NCBI GenBank assembly: GCA_963204715.1
Contig: CAUJHK010000068.1
Coordinates: 1-56,296 of the forward strand
DNA: 56,296 nucleotides
Direction of reading: 5' to 3'
From: Pseudomonadota bacterium
GTDB lineage: Bacteria; Pseudomonadota; Alphaproteobacteria; Micavibrionales; Micavibrionaceae
How positions within the stretch are numbered: the stretch's first letter is position 1; each line of letters begins with the position of its first letter. The translations under genes and the position numbers were made by a program. Of the stretch, positions 6,401 to 47,511 are shown piece by piece. Below the pieces are notes generated by a model. The model saw only the letters and a list, made by a program, of their open reading frames with translations. It was not told the origin of the DNA and did no database searches.

Positions 6401-8138
6401 CCGATTGCTGCACCCCTTCGTCACCTTCTGGCGAATTGTGCAACGGCGCAAAAGCCGCGAGAAACTGGAGTTTGACCCCAGCACCCCCCCAGACCAGATG
6501 AGTGGCCTGACCCTTCGCATTCTGGCCGTTAACATTATCGCGATCATGATTTTGGGCCTTGGGATTTTGTACCTTGGCCAATATACCGATTCCCTGATTG
6601 AAGGAGAGCTGGCGGGTCTGCGGTCTGAGGCGCAGCTTTTTTCAGGGGCCATTTCCGAAGGCGCTGTGCGCCCTGTCTTCCAGATTTCCCCCGTCCCTTT
6701 CGAAAGCCCGCAGGAAATTGAAGCCATAAAGCCAGAGCTGGCACGACGCATGGTGCGCCGCTTGGGCGAAATTGGCAAAAGCCGTATCAGGCTTTATGCG
6801 ATTGACGGCTCTGTCTTGTCAGATTCCCACCAGCTTTCAGGCTCAGGCACCAGCGTATCCGCCGATGTGGAGATGGAAAGCCTGTTGCCTGTTCCACCAA
6901 AGGTTACGTTCGACTCGCTTTTTACCCAGTCTGCCTCGCGCTTTCTTGACCTCATCCCCATGAAGACCCAGCTGATGGAGTTTCCGCGCTCCATGGTGAC
7001 AAATATTTACACATTTCCAGACACGCAGGCCGCTTTGTCAGGCAATGTGCAGGCCAGTGCGTGGAAGGACAAGGACAACCGCATCATTTTAACCGTCTCC
7101 GCCCCCATTCAAAAGGGAAACCAAGTGCTTGGCATTGTGCTTTTGCTGCGCGACGGGGCAGAGCTGGAAAAGGCCATAGCCGAAGTACGGGTTGATGTTT
7201 TCCGTGTGTTTTTGGGGGCGTTGGGGATTACGGTCATGCTGTCCATCTACCTGTCAGGGTTGATATCCCGCCCCTTACAAAGACTGGCTTATGCTGCAGA
7301 AGCCGTGCGTCAGGGCAAAGGGCGTTATGTCGAAATTCCTGACATGTCCCATCGCAATGATGAGATTGGGGATTTGTCCGTCGCGCTGCGTGATATGACC
7401 TATGCCCTTTTCACCCGCATGGACACCATTGAACGCTTTGCGGCCGATGTGGCGCATGAAATAAAAAACCCCCTTACATCCTTGCGCAGCGCCGTGGAAA
7501 CAGCCGCAAAAATCACCGACGAAGAAAAGCGCAAAAAACTGCTTAGCATTATCCAGCATGATGTACAAAGGCTCGACAGGCTTATCTCTGACATCTCCAG
7601 CGCATCGCGCCTTGATGCTGAATTATCCCGTGAAGAAATGGGCCGCGTGGATATTCACGCGCTGATGCACCGCCTGCGCGATGCCTACAAAAAGCCCCTC
7701 AAACGGCTTGAGGGAGAGGACCATGGGGACGATGATAAAATCATTCTGGACCTGGCCAGTGATGAGGCCTTTTATGCCAAAGGTAATCCTGAACGCCTGG
7801 AGCAGGTTTTTGGCAACCTTATCAGCAACGCCCTATCATTCTCCCCAGATGATGGCCGTGTGACCATCCGCGCATTCCAGCAAAATGACAAGGTTATGGT
7901 ACAGGTGGATGATGAAGGGCCAGGCATACCTGAAAACAAACTCCACACAGTGTTTGAACGCTTTTATACTGAACGCCCGCAGCATGAAGGATATGGCCAG
8001 CATTCAGGCCTTGGCCTGTCCATTTCCAAGCAGATTATTGATGCTCATGGCGGCCAGATTTGGGCGGAAAACTTAAGAAAGCATGATGGCAGCATAGCGG
8101 GTGCACGCTTTAATGTGGTTCTGGCAGGTGCAGCATGA
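6372..8138 (+). CDS. chvG: sensor histidine kinase ChvG/ExoS type
   Basis: TM-periplasmic-TM-HAMP layout, H-box [15 protein letters not shown], HATPase N/G boxes, immediately after chvI. The start is uncertain: ATG 6345, ATG 6372 and TTG 6405 are all in frame. Confidence 0.85.
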
Positions 8139-8992
8139 CAAGCCATGATACCGCGCAAAAAACACCTCCCGTTTTCGTCACAGGCTTGTCTGGTGCGGGA
8201 TTGTCCTCTGCTTTAAAAATTCTGGAAGATTTGGGATATGAAGTGTTCGACAACTTCCCTATCCCGCTGATTGACAGTTTGATGGAGGATGTAAATGCGG
8301 ACAAGCCCGTGGCTTTGGGGCTGGACACCCGCACAAGGGGGTTTAACCCTCAAGTCATTATACAAAAAGCGCAGCAATATACTGCACGGCTTTTGTTTAT
8401 CACCTGCGATGAAGCTATCTTGCAAAAACGCTTTACCGAAACACGCCGAAGGCATCCTTTGGCTGCCGACAGACCCGTGAGCGCGGGAATCAAGCGGGAA
8501 CTCGCCATGCTGCACCCCCTTAAAATGGCCGCAGACCCCGTCATAGACACAACCGACATTTCCATTCATGACCTTAAGAGGTTAATGGGCGGGCATTTTG
8601 AGCAAAGCACGCGCAACCATTTAACCCTGACAATCTTGTCTTTTGGCTTCAAGAACGGCCTGCCGCGCGAGGCCGACATAGTTATGGATGTGCGATTTTT
8701 GAAAAACCCGCACTGGGAAGAGGATATTCGCGCCAAAACGGGGCAGGACAAGACGGTGCAAGCATTTATAGCCAAAGATAAGTCCCTAAAACCCTTCATC
8801 GAGAATTTTAAGGTGCTGCTGGAGCCTTTGCTGGAACGATACAGGCTGGAGGGCAAAAGCTACCTGACCATCGCGATCGGCTGCACGGGAGGCAAGCACA
8901 GGTCTGTCTATGTGTCCGAAATGATGGGGGAATGGGCGAAGTCACTGAATATTTCAACGTCCGTTGAGCACAGGGACATGAACAGGGTTTAA
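8135..8992 (+). CDS. rapZ: RNase adapter / P-loop NTPase RapZ (YhbJ)
   Basis: Walker A GLSGAGLSSAL, a C-terminal IGCTGGKHRSV motif, 285 aa. ATGA overlap with the chvG stop. Confidence 0.9.
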   Translation: MTSHDTAQKTPPVFVTGLSGAGLSSALKILEDLGYEVFDNFPIPLIDSLMEDVNADKPVALGLDTRTRGFNPQVIIQKAQQYTARLLFITCDEAILQKRFTETRRRHPLAADRPVSAGIKRELAMLHPLKMAADPVIDTTDISIHDLKRLMGGHFEQSTRNHLTLTILSFGFKNGLPREADIVMDVRFLKNPHWEEDIRAKTGQDKTVQAFIAKDKSLKPFIENFKVLLEPLLERYRLEGKSYLTIAIGCTGGKHRSVYVSEMMGEWAKSLNISTSVEHRDMNRV

Positions 8993-9018
8993 TCTTTTTA
9001 TAAATTTACATAATATTA

Positions 9019-9047
9019 TTGACTTTTCTTTTCATATTCTATATTTT
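9019..9047 (+). promoter_or_regulatory. candidate promoter
   Basis: TTGACT (9019-9024), a 17-nt spacer, then TATTTT (9042-9047), upstream of ATG 9082. Confidence 0.3.
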
Positions 9048-9081
9048 CCCTGCAGGTTTTAACAAAAAGGGCTTAAGTATC

Positions 9082-10344
9082 ATGCGTAAAATTTCAACAT
9101 TACTGGGCGCGGCTGCAATTGGCGCTGTTACAACAACGGGAACAGGCGCGACAACCGTACAGCCCAGTTCTGGCCCGCTGGAATTTTTTGACCGCCTGAC
9201 ACACGAAACGATGCAAACACAAGGCAACTCACATCTAGGACAAATTCGCATTACGCCTGAAGCGAGCCACGCCGCAGGCGCGCCACAGGTTTATGCCGTG
9301 CGTGACGAAAACGACAACAAGCAATGTATCATCGGAAGCCATCTGGCGAAAAAATCTACCGCGTACTCGGCAGAGATTTTTGATACGATTGCACAATCTG
9401 GTAAACTTGATGCACTGAATAACGCCCAAGAGATCGATATTACCACGCTGACACGAAACGGTGCTTATGCATACCCCGCGAACACAACGCCAGAAGATGG
9501 TTTTTTCAGAGCCAACGCTGGCTTTGGTATTGATAAGGCGGTTGTTTTCGTTGATGGCAAAATGCTTGACCTAACAAACAGTGTTGAAAGCAGCCATTAC
9601 ACCACTAAGGCTCAAGGGGCTTTAAACGACACCATTCAGGCCGCTTATCTAGACGGAAAGTCCGTGACCTATGTTTATCTTTCAGACAACGGCCACACGG
9701 TTGTTGACACATTCAATATGGACAAGTCCGTTATTGCGACCTTTGACAAATGCCTTGAGACAATTGACGCCATCGCCATTCCACAAAACGATTATGTGAC
9801 GTTTGAATCCATTCCATACCCAAAAGCGACACCAGAAATCATTGCCCAGATTAAAGGCTCGCAATGTATCAGTGGCCTTAAGGACGAAGATGTTGTGGAT
9901 GTGCGCACAATTCAGTCCGTAACGGGGGCCATCCTCCCCTTTTCCTACAGCCTGATTTTAAAAAACGGGGATGAGGTTGTTTCAGACTTTTTCAAAAAGA
10001 CGGCCGATGGCAAAATGTATTTATCACAAAGCCTGACACAGTTTGCTGAACACAAAATATCGTCCTGCGCGGGCAACCTTCCTGTGGCCCAGCCGCCCCA
10101 GCTTTTGGCATCTCTTTTTCCATCCGTAACCAATTTTGCAACCGTAAGCTCGAATCCTTTGGGGCCCATTCTCACCACCACCCCTCCTTTGGGCGGTGGC
10201 GGCGGCGGTGGTGGCGGATGCAAAGATGATTGTGTCCCCGCGCCCGTTCCCCTACCTTTGGGTGGAGGTATGCTTTTGGGCGGACTTGGCATGCTTGGCG
10301 GAATCGTCCGACTTCGCAAGAAAGGCCCGTCACTGGATTTATAA
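9082..10344 (+). CDS. secreted protein of unknown function with poly-Gly tract and PEP-CTERM/VPLPA-CTERM-like C-terminal sorting tail
   Basis: The signal peptide MRKISTLLGAAAIGAV begins at ATG 9082; the ORF track start at 9019 adds an implausible extension. The C-terminus reads G9-CKDDC-VPAPVPLPLGGGMLLGGLGMLGGIVRLRKK, that is motif + short hydrophobic helix + basic cluster. Confidence 0.6.
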   Translation: MRKISTLLGAAAIGAVTTTGTGATTVQPSSGPLEFFDRLTHETMQTQGNSHLGQIRITPEASHAAGAPQVYAVRDENDNKQCIIGSHLAKKSTAYSAEIFDTIAQSGKLDALNNAQEIDITTLTRNGAYAYPANTTPEDGFFRANAGFGIDKAVVFVDGKMLDLTNSVESSHYTTKAQGALNDTIQAAYLDGKSVTYVYLSDNGHTVVDTFNMDKSVIATFDKCLETIDAIAIPQNDYVTFESIPYPKATPEIIAQIKGSQCISGLKDEDVVDVRTIQSVTGAILPFSYSLILKNGDEVVSDFFKKTADGKMYLSQSLTQFAEHKISSCAGNLPVAQPPQLLASLFPSVTNFATVSSNPLGPILTTTPPLGGGGGGGGGCKDDCVPAPVPLPLGGGMLLGGLGMLGGIVRLRKKGPSLDL

Positions 10345-10353
10345 AAATGCAAA

Positions 10354-10379
10354 AGCGGGCTTTAATGCCCGCTTTTTTG
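10354..10379 (+). terminator. rho-independent terminator
   Basis: AGCGGGC-tttaat-GCCCGCT hairpin followed by TTTTTT, 10 nt after the stop. Confidence 0.65.
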
Positions 10380-10440
10380 TGCTGGTTCTCCTATCGCAAA
10401 TCCCTCTTTGAGAGGGCATTCCTTTTAAAATGGTGGCTTT

Positions 10441-10470
10441 TAATTTTTCAAGCTTTGAGCCATAAATTCC
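10441..10470 (-). repeat. fourth, degenerate copy of the toxin-tail core repeat
   Basis: The 21-nt core taatttttcaagctttgagcc (10441-10461) also occurs at 11006-11026, 11543-11563 and 12121-12141. It encodes (I)YGSKLEKL on the minus strand. No membrane-protein gene follows this copy. Confidence 0.7.
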
Positions 10471-10596
10471 AGATAGGTTCACCGCCATAACATTCAAATG
10501 TAAAAAAACTGGAATCAGGACAAATTGCCCATTTGGTTATTTGAGTACAGATAAACGCCGCACCGCCCCAATACAAAAAATCAATAATTAAAATCA

Positions 10597-10941
10597 TTAC
10601 TGTGTAGACGAATGCCTGAAAAGCATATTCATATTTTTTTTATACCAATAGTAACCGACATATGCAGCAGACAAAATGATTAAAAAGTCAAAAACAAAAT
10701 CAGTCCCTTCATGAGCATACATAAAATATAACCATGGTAAGTCCAAGATGGATTCTTGTGCTTCAAAATAATCTATTTTGTTATCGGAAGCTTTTAGAAC
10801 ATAATAAAAGAACGCCAAAAACCCATAGGCATGAAGAGTGCACGCACAACAAAACGCGTAAACAGGCCAGAAAGCCCTGACCCATTGCCATGAAAAAGAC
10901 TGGTGATAATGTTCCCGCAAACTAGCGTATGTTATCTTCAT
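10597..10941 (-). CDS. small predicted 2-TM membrane protein, paralog A of a candidate immunity family
   Basis: 114 aa. It shares SF(S/T)..W(V/L)..FWP.Y with the 11050 and 11616 ORFs and has aromatic-rich hydrophobic segments. ATG start. Confidence 0.6.
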   Translation of the reverse strand: MKITYASLREHYHQSFSWQWVRAFWPVYAFCCACTLHAYGFLAFFYYVLKASDNKIDYFEAQESILDLPWLYFMYAHEGTDFVFDFLIILSAAYVGYYWYKKNMNMLFRHSSTQ

Positions 10942-11041
10942 TTACGCCATTCCATTGAAACTTATGGTCTTTGATTGTTCCGCGTTCAAGTGAAACCTCA
11001 CCGTCTAATTTTTCAAGCTTTGAGCCGTAGATACTTTTGCA
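10922..11041 (-). repeat. orphan copy of the toxin 3' tail (39 codons + TAG)
   Basis: Translates to CKSIYGSKLEKLDGEVSLERGTIKDHKFQWNGVNEDNIR*. The toxin end reads KPFKIYGSKLEKLNGEVSLERGTIEDHKFQWNSVSERNLR*. It begins right after the paralog B stop. Confidence 0.8.
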
Positions 11042-11049
11042 CAAAAAAA

Positions 11050-11520
11050 TCAATGACAGAAAGGCATTGTATCTGTTTGATTACAAATCGCGACTGTGCT
11101 TATAAATTCGTATAAGTCGTATGTAAATTTCCAGTTCAAAACAAACGAAACAAGCATTATAAAAATGTAACCTACGGACGAAAAAACATATTTATATTTC
11201 TTTAGAATTAAAAAATAGAGACAAAATAAACAAGACAGGGCAATAAAAAATAACATAGGCCAGCTAAATACAAAATCAAAATTATAAATAAATATATCTG
11301 GAAAAAAAGTTGGATCATCTTCATTGTCCGTTAAAAAATAATGAAGAAAAAACAGGAAAGAGAACCTTTCCAAAAAAAATACTATCCAATACAAATAGAC
11401 TGGCCAAAAATGTTTCAGCCAGTCCAGTGTAAAAGAGGCACGGAAGTCAGATGTTATTTTAGCGTGAATCTGTTTCCAAGATAGGATTCCACCTAAACTT
11501 TTGATCCTTAATTGTTCCAT
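11050..11520 (-). CDS. predicted 3-TM membrane protein, paralog B of a candidate immunity family
   Basis: Shares FRASFTLDWLKHFWPVYLYW with paralog C. I use ATG 11520; the ORF track uses GTG 11538, which lies inside the repeat. Confidence 0.6.
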   Translation of the reverse strand: MEQLRIKSLGGILSWKQIHAKITSDFRASFTLDWLKHFWPVYLYWIVFFLERFSFLFFLHYFLTDNEDDPTFFPDIFIYNFDFVFSWPMLFFIALSCLFCLYFLILKKYKYVFSSVGYIFIMLVSFVLNWKFTYDLYEFISTVAICNQTDTMPFCH

Positions 11521-11602
11521 GCTCAATAGAAACCTCACCGTTTAATTTTTCAAGTTTTGAGCCCTGCACTTCAAAAGGTTTTGAATTAGGAATGTTTCGT
11601 AA
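11459..11602 (-). repeat. orphan copy of the toxin 3' tail (47 codons + TAA)
   Basis: Translates to LRNIPNSKPFEVQGSKLEKLNGEVSIEHGTIKDQKFRWNPILETDSR*. The toxin reads LRYIPGSKPFKIYGSKLEKLNGEVSLERGTIEDHKFQWNSVSERNLR*. It is bounded upstream by an in-frame TGA. Confidence 0.8.
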
Positions 11603-11615
11603 TCATTCTATCCCA

Positions 11616-12116
11616 TCATGTTGGAAAAGCACACAAGAGGGGCCAGACAGGCAAATCTGGGCAGACCAGTCTTTGATTTATAAACATATATACCCATTTT
11701 GAACAAAAACTGAATAGTGGATAGCCAAAAAATATACCTGTAAAATACAGATATGTTTGTAATGCTTGGCTATGCTTTTTGATCATTAAATAATAGCCAA
11801 CTTGTAAAAACGCTAAACACATTAAAAAATATATCAATATTTCAACTTCAGGATAATCTCTGTTTTTTGATGTCCAGGCAAAAACCTGAGATTTTCGGTC
11901 ATACGGCTTAAGGTGTTCAAAAAAAACATGCATACCTATAAGCGTTTTCGTAATACACGCTATCCAAAACAAGTAGGCTGGCCAAAAATGTTTCAGCCAG
12001 CCCAGTGTAAAAGAGGCTTTAAAATTCGCTTTTATTCTATCGCAAATTTCTTTCCGAGACAGAATTCCATTGAAACTTATGGTCTTCGATTGTTCCGCGT
12101 TCAAGTGAAACCTCAC
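11616..12116 (-). CDS. predicted 3-TM membrane protein, paralog C of a candidate immunity family
   Basis: 166 aa as called from GTG 12116, overlapping the last 80 nt of the toxin gene in another frame. No ATG lies near the toxin stop, so the true start is uncertain. Confidence 0.55.
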   Translation of the reverse strand: MRFHLNAEQSKTISFNGILSRKEICDRIKANFKASFTLGWLKHFWPAYLFWIACITKTLIGMHVFFEHLKPYDRKSQVFAWTSKNRDYPEVEILIYFLMCLAFLQVGYYLMIKKHSQALQTYLYFTGIFFGYPLFSFCSKWVYMFINQRLVCPDLPVWPLLCAFPT

Positions 12117-12684
12117 CGTTTAATTTTTCAAGTTTTGAGCCATAAATCTTAAATGGTTTTGATCCTGGAATGTACCTAAGCGCACCTAAGACTTTATCAT
12201 CTTTGTTATAATCATACACATCGTTAAAGCGATGATCGACAAGGCCATCTACCAAAACCTTATCGCCTTTTCGTGTCGCCTTCAAGGAACCTGTGGAGCG
12301 AAATTTAACGCGGCCTATCCCCAAACCTTGATCCTCATCAAAATTACGCAACCCCTCGGTAGCGCCAATATCTTGATCCCAATAATCAACACCGCCATCA
12401 ACGGCGGGATTCTTTAAAACAATAGACTCCCCATCCCGCAAACGTAGGATTTGGTCTTTGAAGGGGTGTTTTAGTCCATTCACCTCACCTTTGACCATGC
12501 TGTCTTCAAACCGCTTTTTATTATCAGCCGTCATGTAGCCATGGGGTTCAGGGGCTTGGTTAAGGTCATAAAGACCAAAGTGGCTTAATATTTTTTTGAC
12601 GCGCATTACATCGTCTGGGTTGTTTGTACGGTTGTTGCCCACATCAGCCTTAAGGATGCGGGAAGTCTGGTCAGAATTGGCCAT
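12037..12684 (-). CDS. 215-aa toxin-like protein: N-terminal peptidoglycan-binding-like module and a C-terminal domain with a weak colicin-M-like motif (hypothetical)
   Basis: ATG 12684 is preceded by ACAGGAG with a 7-nt spacer; the ORF track start at 12732 lacks an SD. No signal peptide. It is followed by the three membrane-protein paralogs, and its tail is copied three more times. Confidence 0.6.
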   Translation of the reverse strand: MANSDQTSRILKADVGNNRTNNPDDVMRVKKILSHFGLYDLNQAPEPHGYMTADNKKRFEDSMVKGEVNGLKHPFKDQILRLRDGESIVLKNPAVDGGVDYWDQDIGATEGLRNFDEDQGLGIGRVKFRSTGSLKATRKGDKVLVDGLVDHRFNDVYDYNKDDKVLGALRYIPGSKPFKIYGSKLEKLNGEVSLERGTIEDHKFQWNSVSERNLR

Positions 12685-12887: not shown

Positions 12888-13274
12888 CTAATAGACATGT
12901 TCATCCCTTTCTATTCTGAACAGCGCGTTTTCAACGGACACGCCGCGTTGATTAAGATGGTAAAAAATAGCGTTAAATTTACCGTCCTCGTCTTTTTCAT
13001 TCACCACGCGGTATAACACCCGCGCCTTGGTTTCATGGCCAAGTTGCATCAGCGTTTTGCGGCCGTTCAAAAGCGATATCAGGTTTATGACTTTCTTTTC
13101 TGACAGCATAAAATCTTCAGAGGAATCCAAAACCGTATAATCCCCCACGGGCACAGGCTCCCCCGCCATATCGTCCGCATATTTCAAAACCATAAAGCCG
13201 CGGGGGTGAACGGGGCTTTTGGCGTAGGTATATATGGGCGAGGCCGCCTCTTGGTTAAAATCATTTGTCTGCAT
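12888..13274 (-). CDS. hypothetical protein, 128 aa
   Basis: An ORF at housekeeping-like G+C with no motif I recognise. It is divergent from ahcY and on the same strand as the toxin array, upstream of it. Confidence 0.5.
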   Translation of the reverse strand: MQTNDFNQEAASPIYTYAKSPVHPRGFMVLKYADDMAGEPVPVGDYTVLDSSEDFMLSEKKVINLISLLNGRKTLMQLGHETKARVLYRVVNEKDEDGKFNAIFYHLNQRGVSVENALFRIERDEHVY

Positions 13275-46323: not shown

Positions 46324-46353
46324 TTGACTTCCCACATATGATATGATTATAAT
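46324..46353 (+). promoter_or_regulatory. near-consensus sigma70-type promoter
   Basis: TTGACT (46324-46329), an 18-nt spacer, then a perfect TATAAT (46348-46353). Confidence 0.5.
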
Positions 46354-46363
46354 CCTATTATAT

Positions 46364-46392
46364 AGAGGCGCATTGCGCCTTTTTTCTTTTTA
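46364..46392 (+). terminator. intrinsic-terminator-like hairpin inside the 5' leader (possible attenuator)
   Basis: GGCGC-att-GCGCC (46367-46379, extendable by A-T/G-U pairs) followed by TTTTTTCTTTTT. It lies between the promoter and ATG 46418. No upstream plus-strand gene exists for it to terminate. Confidence 0.45.
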
Positions 46393-46417
46393 TAATCGTA
46401 AAAGAACGAGATTTATC

Positions 46418-47063
46418 ATGCCCTTATTTAACAATCTGGCGCCGCTTTTGCGCGCGCCCGTAGGTAACAACCTCAAAAATAGTCCCGAAGATGTCCAGAA
46501 CCTAAAACGCAACCTGTCAAAAACTGGCCATTATAAAACCCCCATTGAAAATGGGTACATTGACCAGAAGCTTGATGATGGGATCAAGAACTTTCAGCGT
46601 AAAAAACAATTTAAAAATCGATGGTATCGCCAAACCAGGCGGGGAGACTGAAGCCGCATTGGTAAGCACACTGATGAAATTACCGAAACCAAAATCATCA
46701 AAAGAAGATGAAAAATACGGTTATCAAACCGCCAGTGTCATCCCACTTCTGGGGATATTAGGCCTAGGCCTGGGAATGTCCGCCGCAGGCGCTGCGCAAT
46801 GGTGGATGAGCGAAAACAATGCAGACAAGCGTGAAAAAATTCTAAAATCTTTTCAAAAATCTGATGAAAGCACGTCACCCCACCCAGACAACGACTCTTG
46901 TTATGACGAATATGAACGTGATATTAATGAATGCAAGCGCGTGGGGAAAAGTTTAAACTACCGTGCACAAAAAGCGTGTGAGGAAACGGCAATTTTAAGA
47001 TATACACAATGTATAAAAAATATACCGCCAAAAGAAAGGCGCAATTTACAGACAGAATTTTAG
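46418..47063 (+). pseudogene. peptidoglycan-binding-domain protein with a central TM helix and a Cys-rich C-terminal domain; reading frame broken by a +1 shift in an A6 run
   Basis: Frame A (46418-46651) gives ...DDGIKNFQRKK and then an early stop. Frame B continues NNLKIDGIAKPGGETEAAL..., which completes a PG_binding_1-like pattern. The junction is AAAAAA at 46601-46606. Confidence 0.6.
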
Positions 47064-47070
47064 AGATAGT

Positions 47071-47511
47071 ATGAAAATATCTAATAAATATCTTTATGTC
47101 TTTTTAGAGGACGCGCTTACCAATCCGCATTTGCGGTTTGATCTTCACCTAAAACCAAGACCAGATACAAGAGCGTCATACGCAAAAACGGCTTTTGAGT
47201 CGCTTGAGAAACAACAAGCTCTTAATGCTTTTGAAAGAGTTCAGGATGCAGGATTTTGGTGTTTATCAAGACTTCTAAACAAGCGAGGAATTCTAGAAGG
47301 AAAACTGCGCGGCATGATTGTTAGTGCCAATTTCGATGAACCATCCATTATCATTGATGAGTGGATACATAAAGATTATAAGGGCGGAGAATTTCATACA
47401 TTTCTTCCCCTGCCGCCGTTTCCTGAAGATTTAGATTTGGACGACATCAGCATCGATCCGCTTTTGAACATGCGGGTAGGACGTATAATTCTCAACGCTC
47501 TTTTGAATTAA
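47071..47511 (+). CDS. hypothetical cytoplasmic acidic protein, 146 aa (possible cognate or immunity partner)
   Basis: Starts 7 nt after the previous stop. AT-rich, with no signal peptide or TM segment and no domain I recognise. Confidence 0.45.
   Translation: MKISNKYLYVFLEDALTNPHLRFDLHLKPRPDTRASYAKTAFESLEKQQALNAFERVQDAGFWCLSRLLNKRGILEGKLRGMIVSANFDEPSIIIDEWIHKDYKGGEFHTFLPLPPFPEDLDLDDISIDPLLNMRVGRIILNALLN

Follow-up and report, generated by a model that had tools for sequence, protein, structure and literature searches.

A putative colicin M-derived toxin family, mainly in Alphaproteobacteria, with a probably inactive copy beside an array of candidate immunity genes in a Micavibrionaceae genome

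Introduction

The locus considered here raises two linked questions: whether a short motif that one bacterial protein has in common with the bacteriocin colicin M (ColM) reflects descent from the ColM catalytic domain, and whether the gene that carries it can still encode a working toxin. The protein is encoded on contig CAUJHK010000068.1 (GenBank assembly GCA_963204715.1) from a member of the Micavibrionaceae, in the Alphaproteobacteria; the whole 56,296-nt stretch was analyzed and is called the window hereafter. A first-pass annotation, made from the sequence alone, had described a 215-aa protein whose C-terminal half bears a weak and possibly coincidental ColM signature, and translation of the minus strand recovered both that protein and the segment quoted from it, which corresponds to residues 122-183. 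The gene, referred to below as the toxin gene, occupies 12037..12684 on the minus strand and runs from ATG 12684 to a stop codon at 12037-12039 (215 aa plus stop). Its longest frame opens at GTG 12732; the closest relatives start at the Met of ATG 12684, and an AGGAG sequence lies 7 nt 5' of this ATG. Taken as a whole, the observations presented below are probably best explained by a family of toxins derived from ColM, of which the window holds a dead copy beside an array of immunity genes.

Sequence profiles relate the family to the ColM catalytic domain

A word-based search returned two close relatives of the window protein, P0002 (69% identity) and P0003 (55%), each of 288 aa and each with a PG_binding_1 domain at residues 24-74. 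An exhaustive search of representative proteins returned 162 at E<=1e-3, 46 of them at E<=1e-10, and in nearly all of the 162 the match spans query residues ~50-210 and lies at the extreme C-terminus of the relative. A family alignment of 86 members was compared with an alignment of 20 ColM-family sequences, taken from 28 ColM relatives collected around a reference ColM from plasmid NC_009837, on which the Pfam Colicin_M model scores 515 bits. The hhalign comparison of the two alignments has a probability of 81.4% and an E-value of 1.2e-5 over 137 columns and covers ColM residues 126-267, which is essentially the entire catalytic domain (about 122-271). In its register, the HYLxGxG segment of the family falls on ColM H-Y-L-W-G-N-G (135-141), the D-x-Y-D-F-N motif on ColM 226-231 and the A-K-P-F-x-V element on ColM G-K-E-Y-Q-I. 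All 12 control alignments, reversed or column-shuffled, remained at a probability of <=0.2% and a score of <=16.3, versus 46.1 for the real pair. The family profile aligned with the single ColM sequence at 46% probability (E 2e-4, 69 columns), and BLASTP of P0002 against ColM gave, as a single comparison, an E-value of 0.003 in the motif region. In the window protein the motif reads DVYDYN (residues 155-160, 12205..12222, minus strand), the counterpart of ColM D226-K-Y-D-F-N231. The pattern D.YD[FY]N occurs only once, at this site, among the 112,588 six-frame residues of the window, and a chance occurrence is thus unlikely.

The profile-profile comparison that had been proposed as a check on the first-pass annotation is therefore positive, and what was described there as perhaps a coincidence is better read as homology. 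The alignment it had given, of D-x-Y-D-[FY]-N and of a later G-x-K-x-[FY]-x-I element, was right when set against the fetched ColM sequence, which reads D-K-Y-D-F-N, then A-S-T-H-R, then S-G-K-E-Y-Q-I, and hhalign reproduced it. Its focus on the C-terminal half holds for the motif, but in full-length relatives the similarity spans the whole catalytic domain.

Several searches speak against this homology. At E<=1, Pfam assigned no family to the 215-aa protein, and hence neither Colicin_M (gathering score 27 bits) nor Phage_Mu_F; NCBIfam assigned it no family either. Colicin_M had no match in the genome of the window at E<=10, and across 401 genomes of the phylum it had 0 matches at E<=1e-3. Against all PDB sequences, the family profile reached PaeM and ColM at E-values of only 1.1-2.4, which are not significant alone, and in the ESM Atlas a ColM cluster at rank 8 (score 0.82) amounts to a mere lead. 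With these results weighed against the family-to-family alignment and its controls, the ColM-like domain of the family is very probably a true homologue of the ColM catalytic domain.

Predicted structures of an intact relative and of the window protein

The AlphaFold model of the intact relative P0002 has a pLDDT of 91.7. When it was searched with Foldseek, all of the 12 rows listed for ranks 1-13 were ColM-family chains (E 4.7e-5 to 6.4e-3), namely syringacin M (E 4.7e-5, probability 1.00), PaeM, colicin M, pectocin M2 and pectocin M1, and peptidoglycan-binding domains came next in the list, for the N-terminus. VIA-align superposed residues 91-267 of the model on residues 125-273 of the pectocin M2 chain with Z 7.2 (rmsd 5.2, 137 aligned, 19% identity); the values for the other ColM-family chains were Z 7.0 for pectocin M1, 5.8 for PaeM and 4.4 for ColM, so that all are below 8. 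As predicted, then, the structure of P0002 contains the ColM catalytic fold, in which helices are packed on a long, open, half-barrel sheet.

The model of the window protein has a pLDDT of 86, with residues 50-215 in blocks of 80-98. ColM-family chains occupy 8 of its first 10 Foldseek rows (E 0.012-0.16), and VIA-align places residues 49-194 of the model on PaeM with Z 6.2 (rmsd 3.4, 108 residues aligned). These matches are offset by others that count against a ColM assignment: no Foldseek row reaches E<=0.001, the best being 0.012, and in a Foldseek-independent search of 48,161 chains, where none reaches Z 8, PaeM (Z 6.2) stands at rank 5 and pilins and autotransporter barrels score equal to or above it, with PilA at Z 7.4. 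A fragment of the Hia autotransporter obtained Z 5.3 in the same search, which fits a remark in one passage of PMC8469651 that the ColM catalytic domain resembles the Hia beta-domain. The structural check suggested with the first-pass annotation is accordingly favorable for P0002, with ColM-family chains at the top ranks, and indecisive for the copy in the window, for which PaeM ties with unrelated folds. Since structure alone does not decide the matter for this copy, which carries a deletion described below, homology is argued from the sequence profile and the intact relatives jointly.

A different interpretation of the same structural data would be that convergence or chance produced the resemblance to ColM, and that the domain has an unrelated helix-on-sheet fold. 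The pilins and autotransporter domains that match the window model as well as ColM proteins do would fit this interpretation, as would VIA-align Z values that are all below 8 and a Pfam model that misses the family. We regard it as very improbable, because the profile match extends over 137 columns, keeps two separate motifs in order and lies far above all 12 controls, and because every row listed for ranks 1-13 in the Foldseek search with P0002 is a ColM-family chain. Moreover, when the 86 aligned members were scanned singly against Pfam at E<=10, three of them touched Colicin_M below threshold (best E 0.05); it was the only C-terminal Pfam family with three member matches, FliMN_C and TERB2 having two each. 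Descent from ColM thus remains the preferred reading of the fold.

The C-terminal domain of BtpeA (9jdi_A), a type VI effector of Bacteroides fragilis, appeared among the ColM-family rows for the P0002 model, with Z 4.8 over 139 residues (model 90-266); one published passage on BtpeA carries no mention of a ColM link.

Domain architecture and distribution of the family

The ColM-like domain spans ~190 aa, and the relatives that carry it are ~77-640 aa long, the shortest rows being fragments. In the same Pfam scan PG_binding_1 was found in 35 of the 86 aligned members; eight members have, between PG_binding_1 and the toxin domain, the C-terminal piece of the Phage_Mu_F / SPP1 gp7 domain (MuF). 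Relatives that match the window protein at the N-terminus only present a complementary picture: all 13 have PG_binding_1 at ~24-74 followed by different C-termini, none of which is a named toxin domain. The predatory alphaproteobacterium Micavibrio aeruginosavorus has one member, P0013 (454 aa, WP_015467956), whose sole annotation is 'peptidoglycan-binding domain-containing protein'. When 401 genomes of the class were searched with a profile, 41 gave a match, in most cases through PG_binding_1 alone; according to the rows listed, the toxin domain proper was matched in 11 genomes, that of the window included. Searches for related loci with P0002 in a collection of metagenomes, and with an alignment of the window protein and its 288-aa relatives in a collection of genomes, yielded none that could be confirmed. 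It is likely, in our view, that the family comprises polymorphic-toxin-like proteins, mainly of Alphaproteobacteria, that have had no name so far.

Two further observations concern the N-terminal module. In one genome of this set, five separate matches to it fall inside 10 kb (G485:C1:1534466-1544321), which suggests a cluster of toxins with a common front end. The window itself has a second gene with the same leader and PG_binding_1 at 46343-47511 on the plus strand (profile positions 1-94, E 3.8e-17). A frameshift splits this gene into open reading frames (ORFs) 46343-46651 and 46545-47063, and two TGA codons lie in the read-through; its C-terminus is different, Cys-rich and with one hydrophobic stretch, and is followed by a 146-aa ORF with no Pfam match. 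Together they might represent another toxin-immunity pair of this delivery family, now broken.

The Asp-x-Tyr-Asp site is conserved and the His-Arg pair is absent

In the hhalign register, D155, Y157 and D158 of the window protein are aligned to ColM D226, Y228 and D229. Conservation across the family is high at this site, with Asp155 in 83 of 86 members, Tyr157 in 82, Asp158 in 73 (and Asn in 11 others) and Phe159 in 82. According to PMC8469651, in the parts cited here, the equivalent Asp of syringacin M and PaeM binds Ca2+ or Mg2+. The HYLxGxG segment is also recognizable in the family (H 47/73, Y/F 72/73, G 55/75, last Gly 65/76).

The first-pass annotation had remarked that the expected His-Arg pair is missing downstream of the motif, where Lys-Val is found, and that a His-Arg dipeptide (H151-R152) lies upstream instead. 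Both remarks are correct, and the absence extends to the whole family. In the columns equivalent to ColM H235 and R236, no His or Arg is enriched across the 86 relatives, and hhalign sets the ColM H-R-G opposite a gap. This counts against a ColM-type activity, as the ColM mutants H235A and R236A are reported in PMC8469651 to retain <2% of activity. Of the upstream pair, His151 stands four positions ahead of the catalytic Asp and is retained by 77 of 86 members; the adjacent Arg152 is not conserved. Since the dyad is absent family-wide, we infer lipid II cleavage from homology and context; the catalytic mechanism of ColM itself is described in the same source as still unknown.

The same positions bear on whether the family has kept the ColM fold for another reaction, acting on another undecaprenyl-linked or membrane lipid substrate, or has become non-catalytic and, for example, binds or sequesters a precursor. 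A change of this kind would accord with the loss of the His235/Arg236 equivalents throughout the family and with its own set of conserved residues, which comprises, besides His151, Arg138 (81/86), Ser130 (79/86), an invariant Gly124 and Trp206 (81/85), the last of these located in a C-terminal hairpin of ~20 residues that ColM does not have. It would also accord with the ColM-like domain of PmnH, which has an altered motif and appears inactive (PMC8469651, in the passage cited), and with the broader sense in which ColM-fold domains are presented as lipid-head-group toxins in passages of Burroughs et al. 2025 (10.1101/2025.01.14.632903). However, the best-conserved positions of the family are precisely those that ColM needs, the metal-binding Asp and the Tyr-Asp, and the partners encoded next to the toxins are membrane-anchored like ColM immunity proteins. 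We consider another reaction rather unlikely and retain cleavage of lipid II as the expected activity of intact members.

A 73-codon deletion in the copy of the window

The suggestion that the N-terminus is a peptidoglycan-binding module proved right in part: residues 1-54 (12523..12684, minus strand) comprise a leader and align with the PG_binding_1 of the 288-aa relatives, but only with its first half. Compared with both of these relatives, the window protein is without 73 residues between ...HGYMTAD and NKKRFE..., and the in-frame junction lies at 12522..12523 on the minus strand, in place of residues 55-127 of the relatives. Lost with this stretch are the second half of PG_binding_1, a linker and ~33 residues from the start of the toxin domain, HYLxGxG among them; in the hhalign register, the loss takes in the equivalent of ColM 126-148. 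What remains downstream (residues 55-215, 12040..12522, minus strand) is the rest of the ColM-like catalytic domain and the family-specific C-terminal beta-hairpin extension of ~20 residues, as delimited by hhalign, the structural model, Foldseek and VIA-align.

The deletion is taken as real. A 540-nt Logan contig of run X2, independently assembled, covers 12112-12651 and bridges the junction at 12522/12523 with no difference. Some reservations attach to this result and to what follows from it: run X2 comes from a sister sample of the likely source in the same study and so is not independent, and a 181-nt contig from another study (run X6), which covers 12493-12673, has one flank of just 30 letters versus the 31 required. 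Runs X4, X5 and X6 leave parts of this stretch uncovered, from which no conclusion is drawn. In addition, the toxin gene retains an open frame with a good ribosome-binding site; it may have undergone the deletion recently, or some role may be left to the short form.

These reservations lead to the possibility that the 215-aa protein is an active toxin, with residues 55-215 folding and cleaving without HYLxGxG and the first downstream membrane protein serving as its working immunity partner. Besides the open frame and the ribosome-binding site, such a protein would explain the confidence of AlphaFold in residues 50-215, the intact Asp-x-Tyr-Asp and the presence of the allele in several assemblies. 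Nevertheless, ColM needs residues 122-271: this minimal active domain was established by truncation, although the structure had suggested 141-271 (PMC8469651, in the passage cited), and the equivalent of residues 126-148 is what the window protein has lost. The deleted segment is conserved in the family, as the counts for Y/F (72/73) and the last Gly (65/76) attest, and AlphaFold confidence says little on the stability of a deletion variant. An active short form is hence unlikely. Because the HYLxGxG segment that ColM requires is deleted, the copy in the window is probably inactive; it is most likely enzymatically dead, and there is a reasonable likelihood that it is an inactive remnant kept beside immunity genes. 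We infer that the locus is now mainly a store of immunity genes against the related toxins of neighbours.

Toxin-tail remnants and candidate immunity genes downstream of the toxin gene

The genes in question form an array downstream of the toxin gene, on the same strand. The first-pass annotation had drawn attention to membrane-protein neighbours, and the downstream ORFs do each have two or three hydropathy peaks. Candidate immunity gene 1 (11616..12116, 166 aa, three peaks) has a GTG start at 12116, although its true start is uncertain; this GTG lies 80 nt inside the 3' end of the toxin gene, in a different frame. It is followed by a first remnant of a toxin 3' tail (11465..11608), which has an in-frame TGA upstream and belongs to repeat families D1-D3, and by candidate immunity gene 2 (11050..11538, 162 aa, 37% identical to gene 1, three peaks). 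A second tail remnant (10922..11035) corresponds to residues 179-215 and is 81% identical to the tail of the resident toxin, and candidate immunity gene 3 (10597..10941, 114 aa) is shortened, 29% identical to gene 1 and has two peaks; its ATG lies 17 nt before the stop of its own toxin-tail remnant. The overlap of toxin and immunity gene may explain why a tail travels with each immunity gene. At the far end of the array, a last remnant of 29 nt (10439..10467), of repeat family D3, encodes IYGSKLEKL.

Altogether, four copies of the toxin 3' tail (repeat family D3) are spaced by 565, 537 and 578 nt, and each of the first three is then followed by a membrane-protein ORF. The tail remnants have 79-97% DNA identity to the reference copy of each repeat family D1-D3, whereas the immunity paralogs have only 37% and 29% identity. 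The last 37 residues read from the remnant at 11465-11608 (FEVQ...ETDS, the final Arg not included) are identical to the tail of P0003, whose first 54 residues are in turn nearly identical to those of the window protein. We read the array as the trace of successive replacements of tail-plus-immunity cassettes between strains. The three membrane paralogs probably protect the producer from such toxins. Pfam and NCBIfam returned nothing usable for these three ORFs or for an upstream ORF of 128 aa (12888-13274); the latter had no tblastn match in the 29 related loci (L009-L037), the best value for it and the three membrane proteins being E 0.42, and for that reason it is not counted as part of the system.

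The G+C content falls to 31-39% at 10250-12250, versus ~50% around it, and the flanks hold ordinary genes, for a sensor kinase, RapZ, AdoHcy hydrolase and a formyltransferase. A 441-aa ORF at 9019-10344 on the plus strand is convergent with the array. It has a hydrophobic N-terminus, an eight-Gly run and a C-terminus in which a hydrophobic stretch followed by basic residues has a PEP-CTERM-type look, the sole support for which is a sub-threshold NCBIfam match (E 0.038).

Related loci, delivery and proposed action

Membrane-protein partners recur where other members of the family are encoded. In nine of ten other loci, an ORF adjoining the toxin gene has a predicted membrane helix: six of these partners are 150-290 aa long with one N-terminal helix, one has four helices, one has about eight, and the ninth is on the opposite strand with a single peak; the partner in the tenth locus is below the hydropathy threshold. 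Tandem arrangements recur as well. At L039 (G680:C11), a region at 7564-11055 consists of a 446-aa toxin gene followed by four tandem paralogs of 163-166 aa, three of which were checked and each have one N-terminal membrane helix; they are unrelated to the candidate immunity proteins of the window. Elsewhere, a full-length family member of 597 aa is followed, ~800 nt downstream, by an orphan ColM-like fragment (G696:C1:4250897-4251151, equivalent to L015 2973-3233; profile positions 229-310, E 9.5e-10). The candidate immunity proteins have no mutual similarity between loci, and the three of the window had no tblastn match in L009-L037. Family genes form small islands in alphaproteobacterial chromosomes: within five loci of 14-20 kb, 91 ORFs were picked, and a scan of the 49 nearest to the toxin gene at E<=1e-4 identified only housekeeping genes and no phage or secretion genes.

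Delivery is a point against a toxin interpretation. The hydropathy scan of the toxin found no hydrophobic peak fit for a signal peptide, and TssC, VirB4 and MuF (the last at E<=0.01) were not found in the genome of the window, which is 90.4% complete. Packaging into phage heads has been proposed for MuF toxins (Zhang et al. 2012, PMC3482391, in the passage cited), and the MuF piece that 8 of 86 relatives carry hints that some lineages, though not that of the window, use it too.

The same features would be expected of a cell-wall enzyme of the host or of a phage, with an N-terminal PG_binding_1 and a C-terminal catalytic domain as in endolysins, and with no role as an interbacterial toxin. The N-terminal structural matches are indeed to phiKZ gp144, the AP3 endolysin and LysT84 (Z 8.0-9.4), and the missing signal peptide and the MuF piece of some relatives would fit such an enzyme. 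Even so, phage genes are absent from the 49 ORFs scanned in the five loci and MuF was not found in the genome of the window, while variable membrane partners, tandem arrays and orphan toxin-tail remnants are marks of toxin-immunity systems. An endolysin-like enzyme is, on these grounds, highly improbable, and the interpretation as toxins with immunity partners is kept.

In the action proposed for such toxins, the intact protein would reach the periplasm of a target cell, where the peptidoglycan-binding module may hold it in the wall compartment. The ColM-like domain would use the conserved Asp-x-Tyr-Asp site, its Asp presumably with a divalent cation, and would by analogy with ColM cut lipid II between undecaprenol and pyrophosphate, upon which peptidoglycan synthesis would stop. 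The membrane partners would shield the producer at the outer face of its cytoplasmic membrane.

A more far-reaching interpretation joins these elements and is put forward only tentatively, namely that the family is a separate, mainly alphaproteobacterial clade of the ColM fold with a chemistry, delivery, diversification and ecology of its own. Its chemistry would dispense with the His-Arg dyad and perhaps rely on the His four residues before the catalytic Asp and on other conserved residues. Delivery would combine the peptidoglycan-binding module with an undescribed route that involves neither a signal peptide nor type IV or VI secretion nor a TonB box. Diversification would proceed through the last ~40 residues, acting as a conserved recombination handle for swapping tail-plus-immunity cassettes between strains, and the member found in the predatory M. 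aeruginosavorus might point to a use against prey.

Comparison with known systems

The systems closest to the family are ColM, PaeM, syringacin M and pectocins M1 and M2 (PF14859), with which it shares a catalytic domain that is homologous by profile and predicted fold and in which HYLxGxG and Asp-x-Tyr-Asp-Phe-Asn are conserved. The partners are alike too, in that they belong to the cytoplasmic membrane, vary in topology and have no mutual similarity, although their immunity role is a candidate one here. ColM immunity is characterized in section 9 of PMC5821083 as 'an amalgam of immunity partners' of differing topologies, and ColM is said in the same source, as cited, not to be co-purifiable with Cmi. 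The differences are equally clear: the relatives are missed by the Pfam model and lack His-Arg behind the motif, the C-terminus is extended by a beta-hairpin of ~20 residues, the N-terminus consists of PG_binding_1 with or without MuF instead of a TonB box and a receptor-binding domain, and the hosts are Alphaproteobacteria, with the genes in chromosomal islands. By comparison, ColM-type toxins are presented in the cited parts of PMC5821083 as receptor-dependent bacteriocins found mainly in Gamma- and Betaproteobacteria, and the front ends that those parts describe are a TonB box or a ferredoxin, together with two hybrid bacteriocins, with no PG_binding_1 architecture among them. Our literature search found no paper joining 'colicin M-like' with Alphaproteobacteria, and 'Micavibrio' with 'colicin' returned only unrelated work. 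The family was rated overall as descending from the ColM catalytic domain while departing from it in three features, namely the match to the Pfam model, the His-Arg dyad and the architecture for uptake, with the copy in the window additionally being without a required segment.

Burroughs et al. 2025 (10.1101/2025.01.14.632903) report a 'novel toxin domain unified with the Colicin M fold', and the domains in the passages cited resemble the present ones in being divergent C-terminal warheads of the ColM fold, accompanied by fast-evolving, membrane-anchored periplasmic immunity proteins. Those domains instead have a lipobox with cystatin-like or 'broken-hairpin' fusions and BamE-like immunity, and these passages contain no fusion to PG_binding_1 or MuF; the two families may overlap. 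With MuF polymorphic toxins (Jamet et al. 2017, PMC5576092; Zhang et al. 2012, PMC3482391), the likeness lies in the MuF part of 8 of 86 relatives, but MuF is absent from the window protein and from the relatives closest to it, and no phage genes surround the five loci; in the main text of PMC5576092, the word 'peptidoglycan' does not occur and no ColM toxin is mentioned. TelC, the lipid II phosphatase toxin of Gram-positive type VII secretion (PMC5555719, in the part cited), would share a proposed lipid II target outside the cytoplasmic membrane and a role in interbacterial antagonism; its fold is unrelated and its secretion system another one, which makes it a functional analogue only.

Lastly, polymorphic toxin systems as defined by Zhang et al. 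2012 possess immunity genes downstream of the toxin and orphan cassettes of toxin end and immunity gene, and the loci described here have candidates for both. The gene in the window is itself eroded, and its interest resides in the family to which it belongs and in an array of immunity genes and tail remnants that would record the exchange of cassettes between strains. The family adds at least 162 representative clusters that escape the family models now in use, and in Alphaproteobacteria it places the same ColM fold behind a front end of the peptidoglycan-binding or MuF type, with Asp-x-Tyr-Asp kept and His-Arg not. It may serve as a natural experiment on the residues needed for ColM chemistry and as a source of candidate new lipid II-targeting enzymes.

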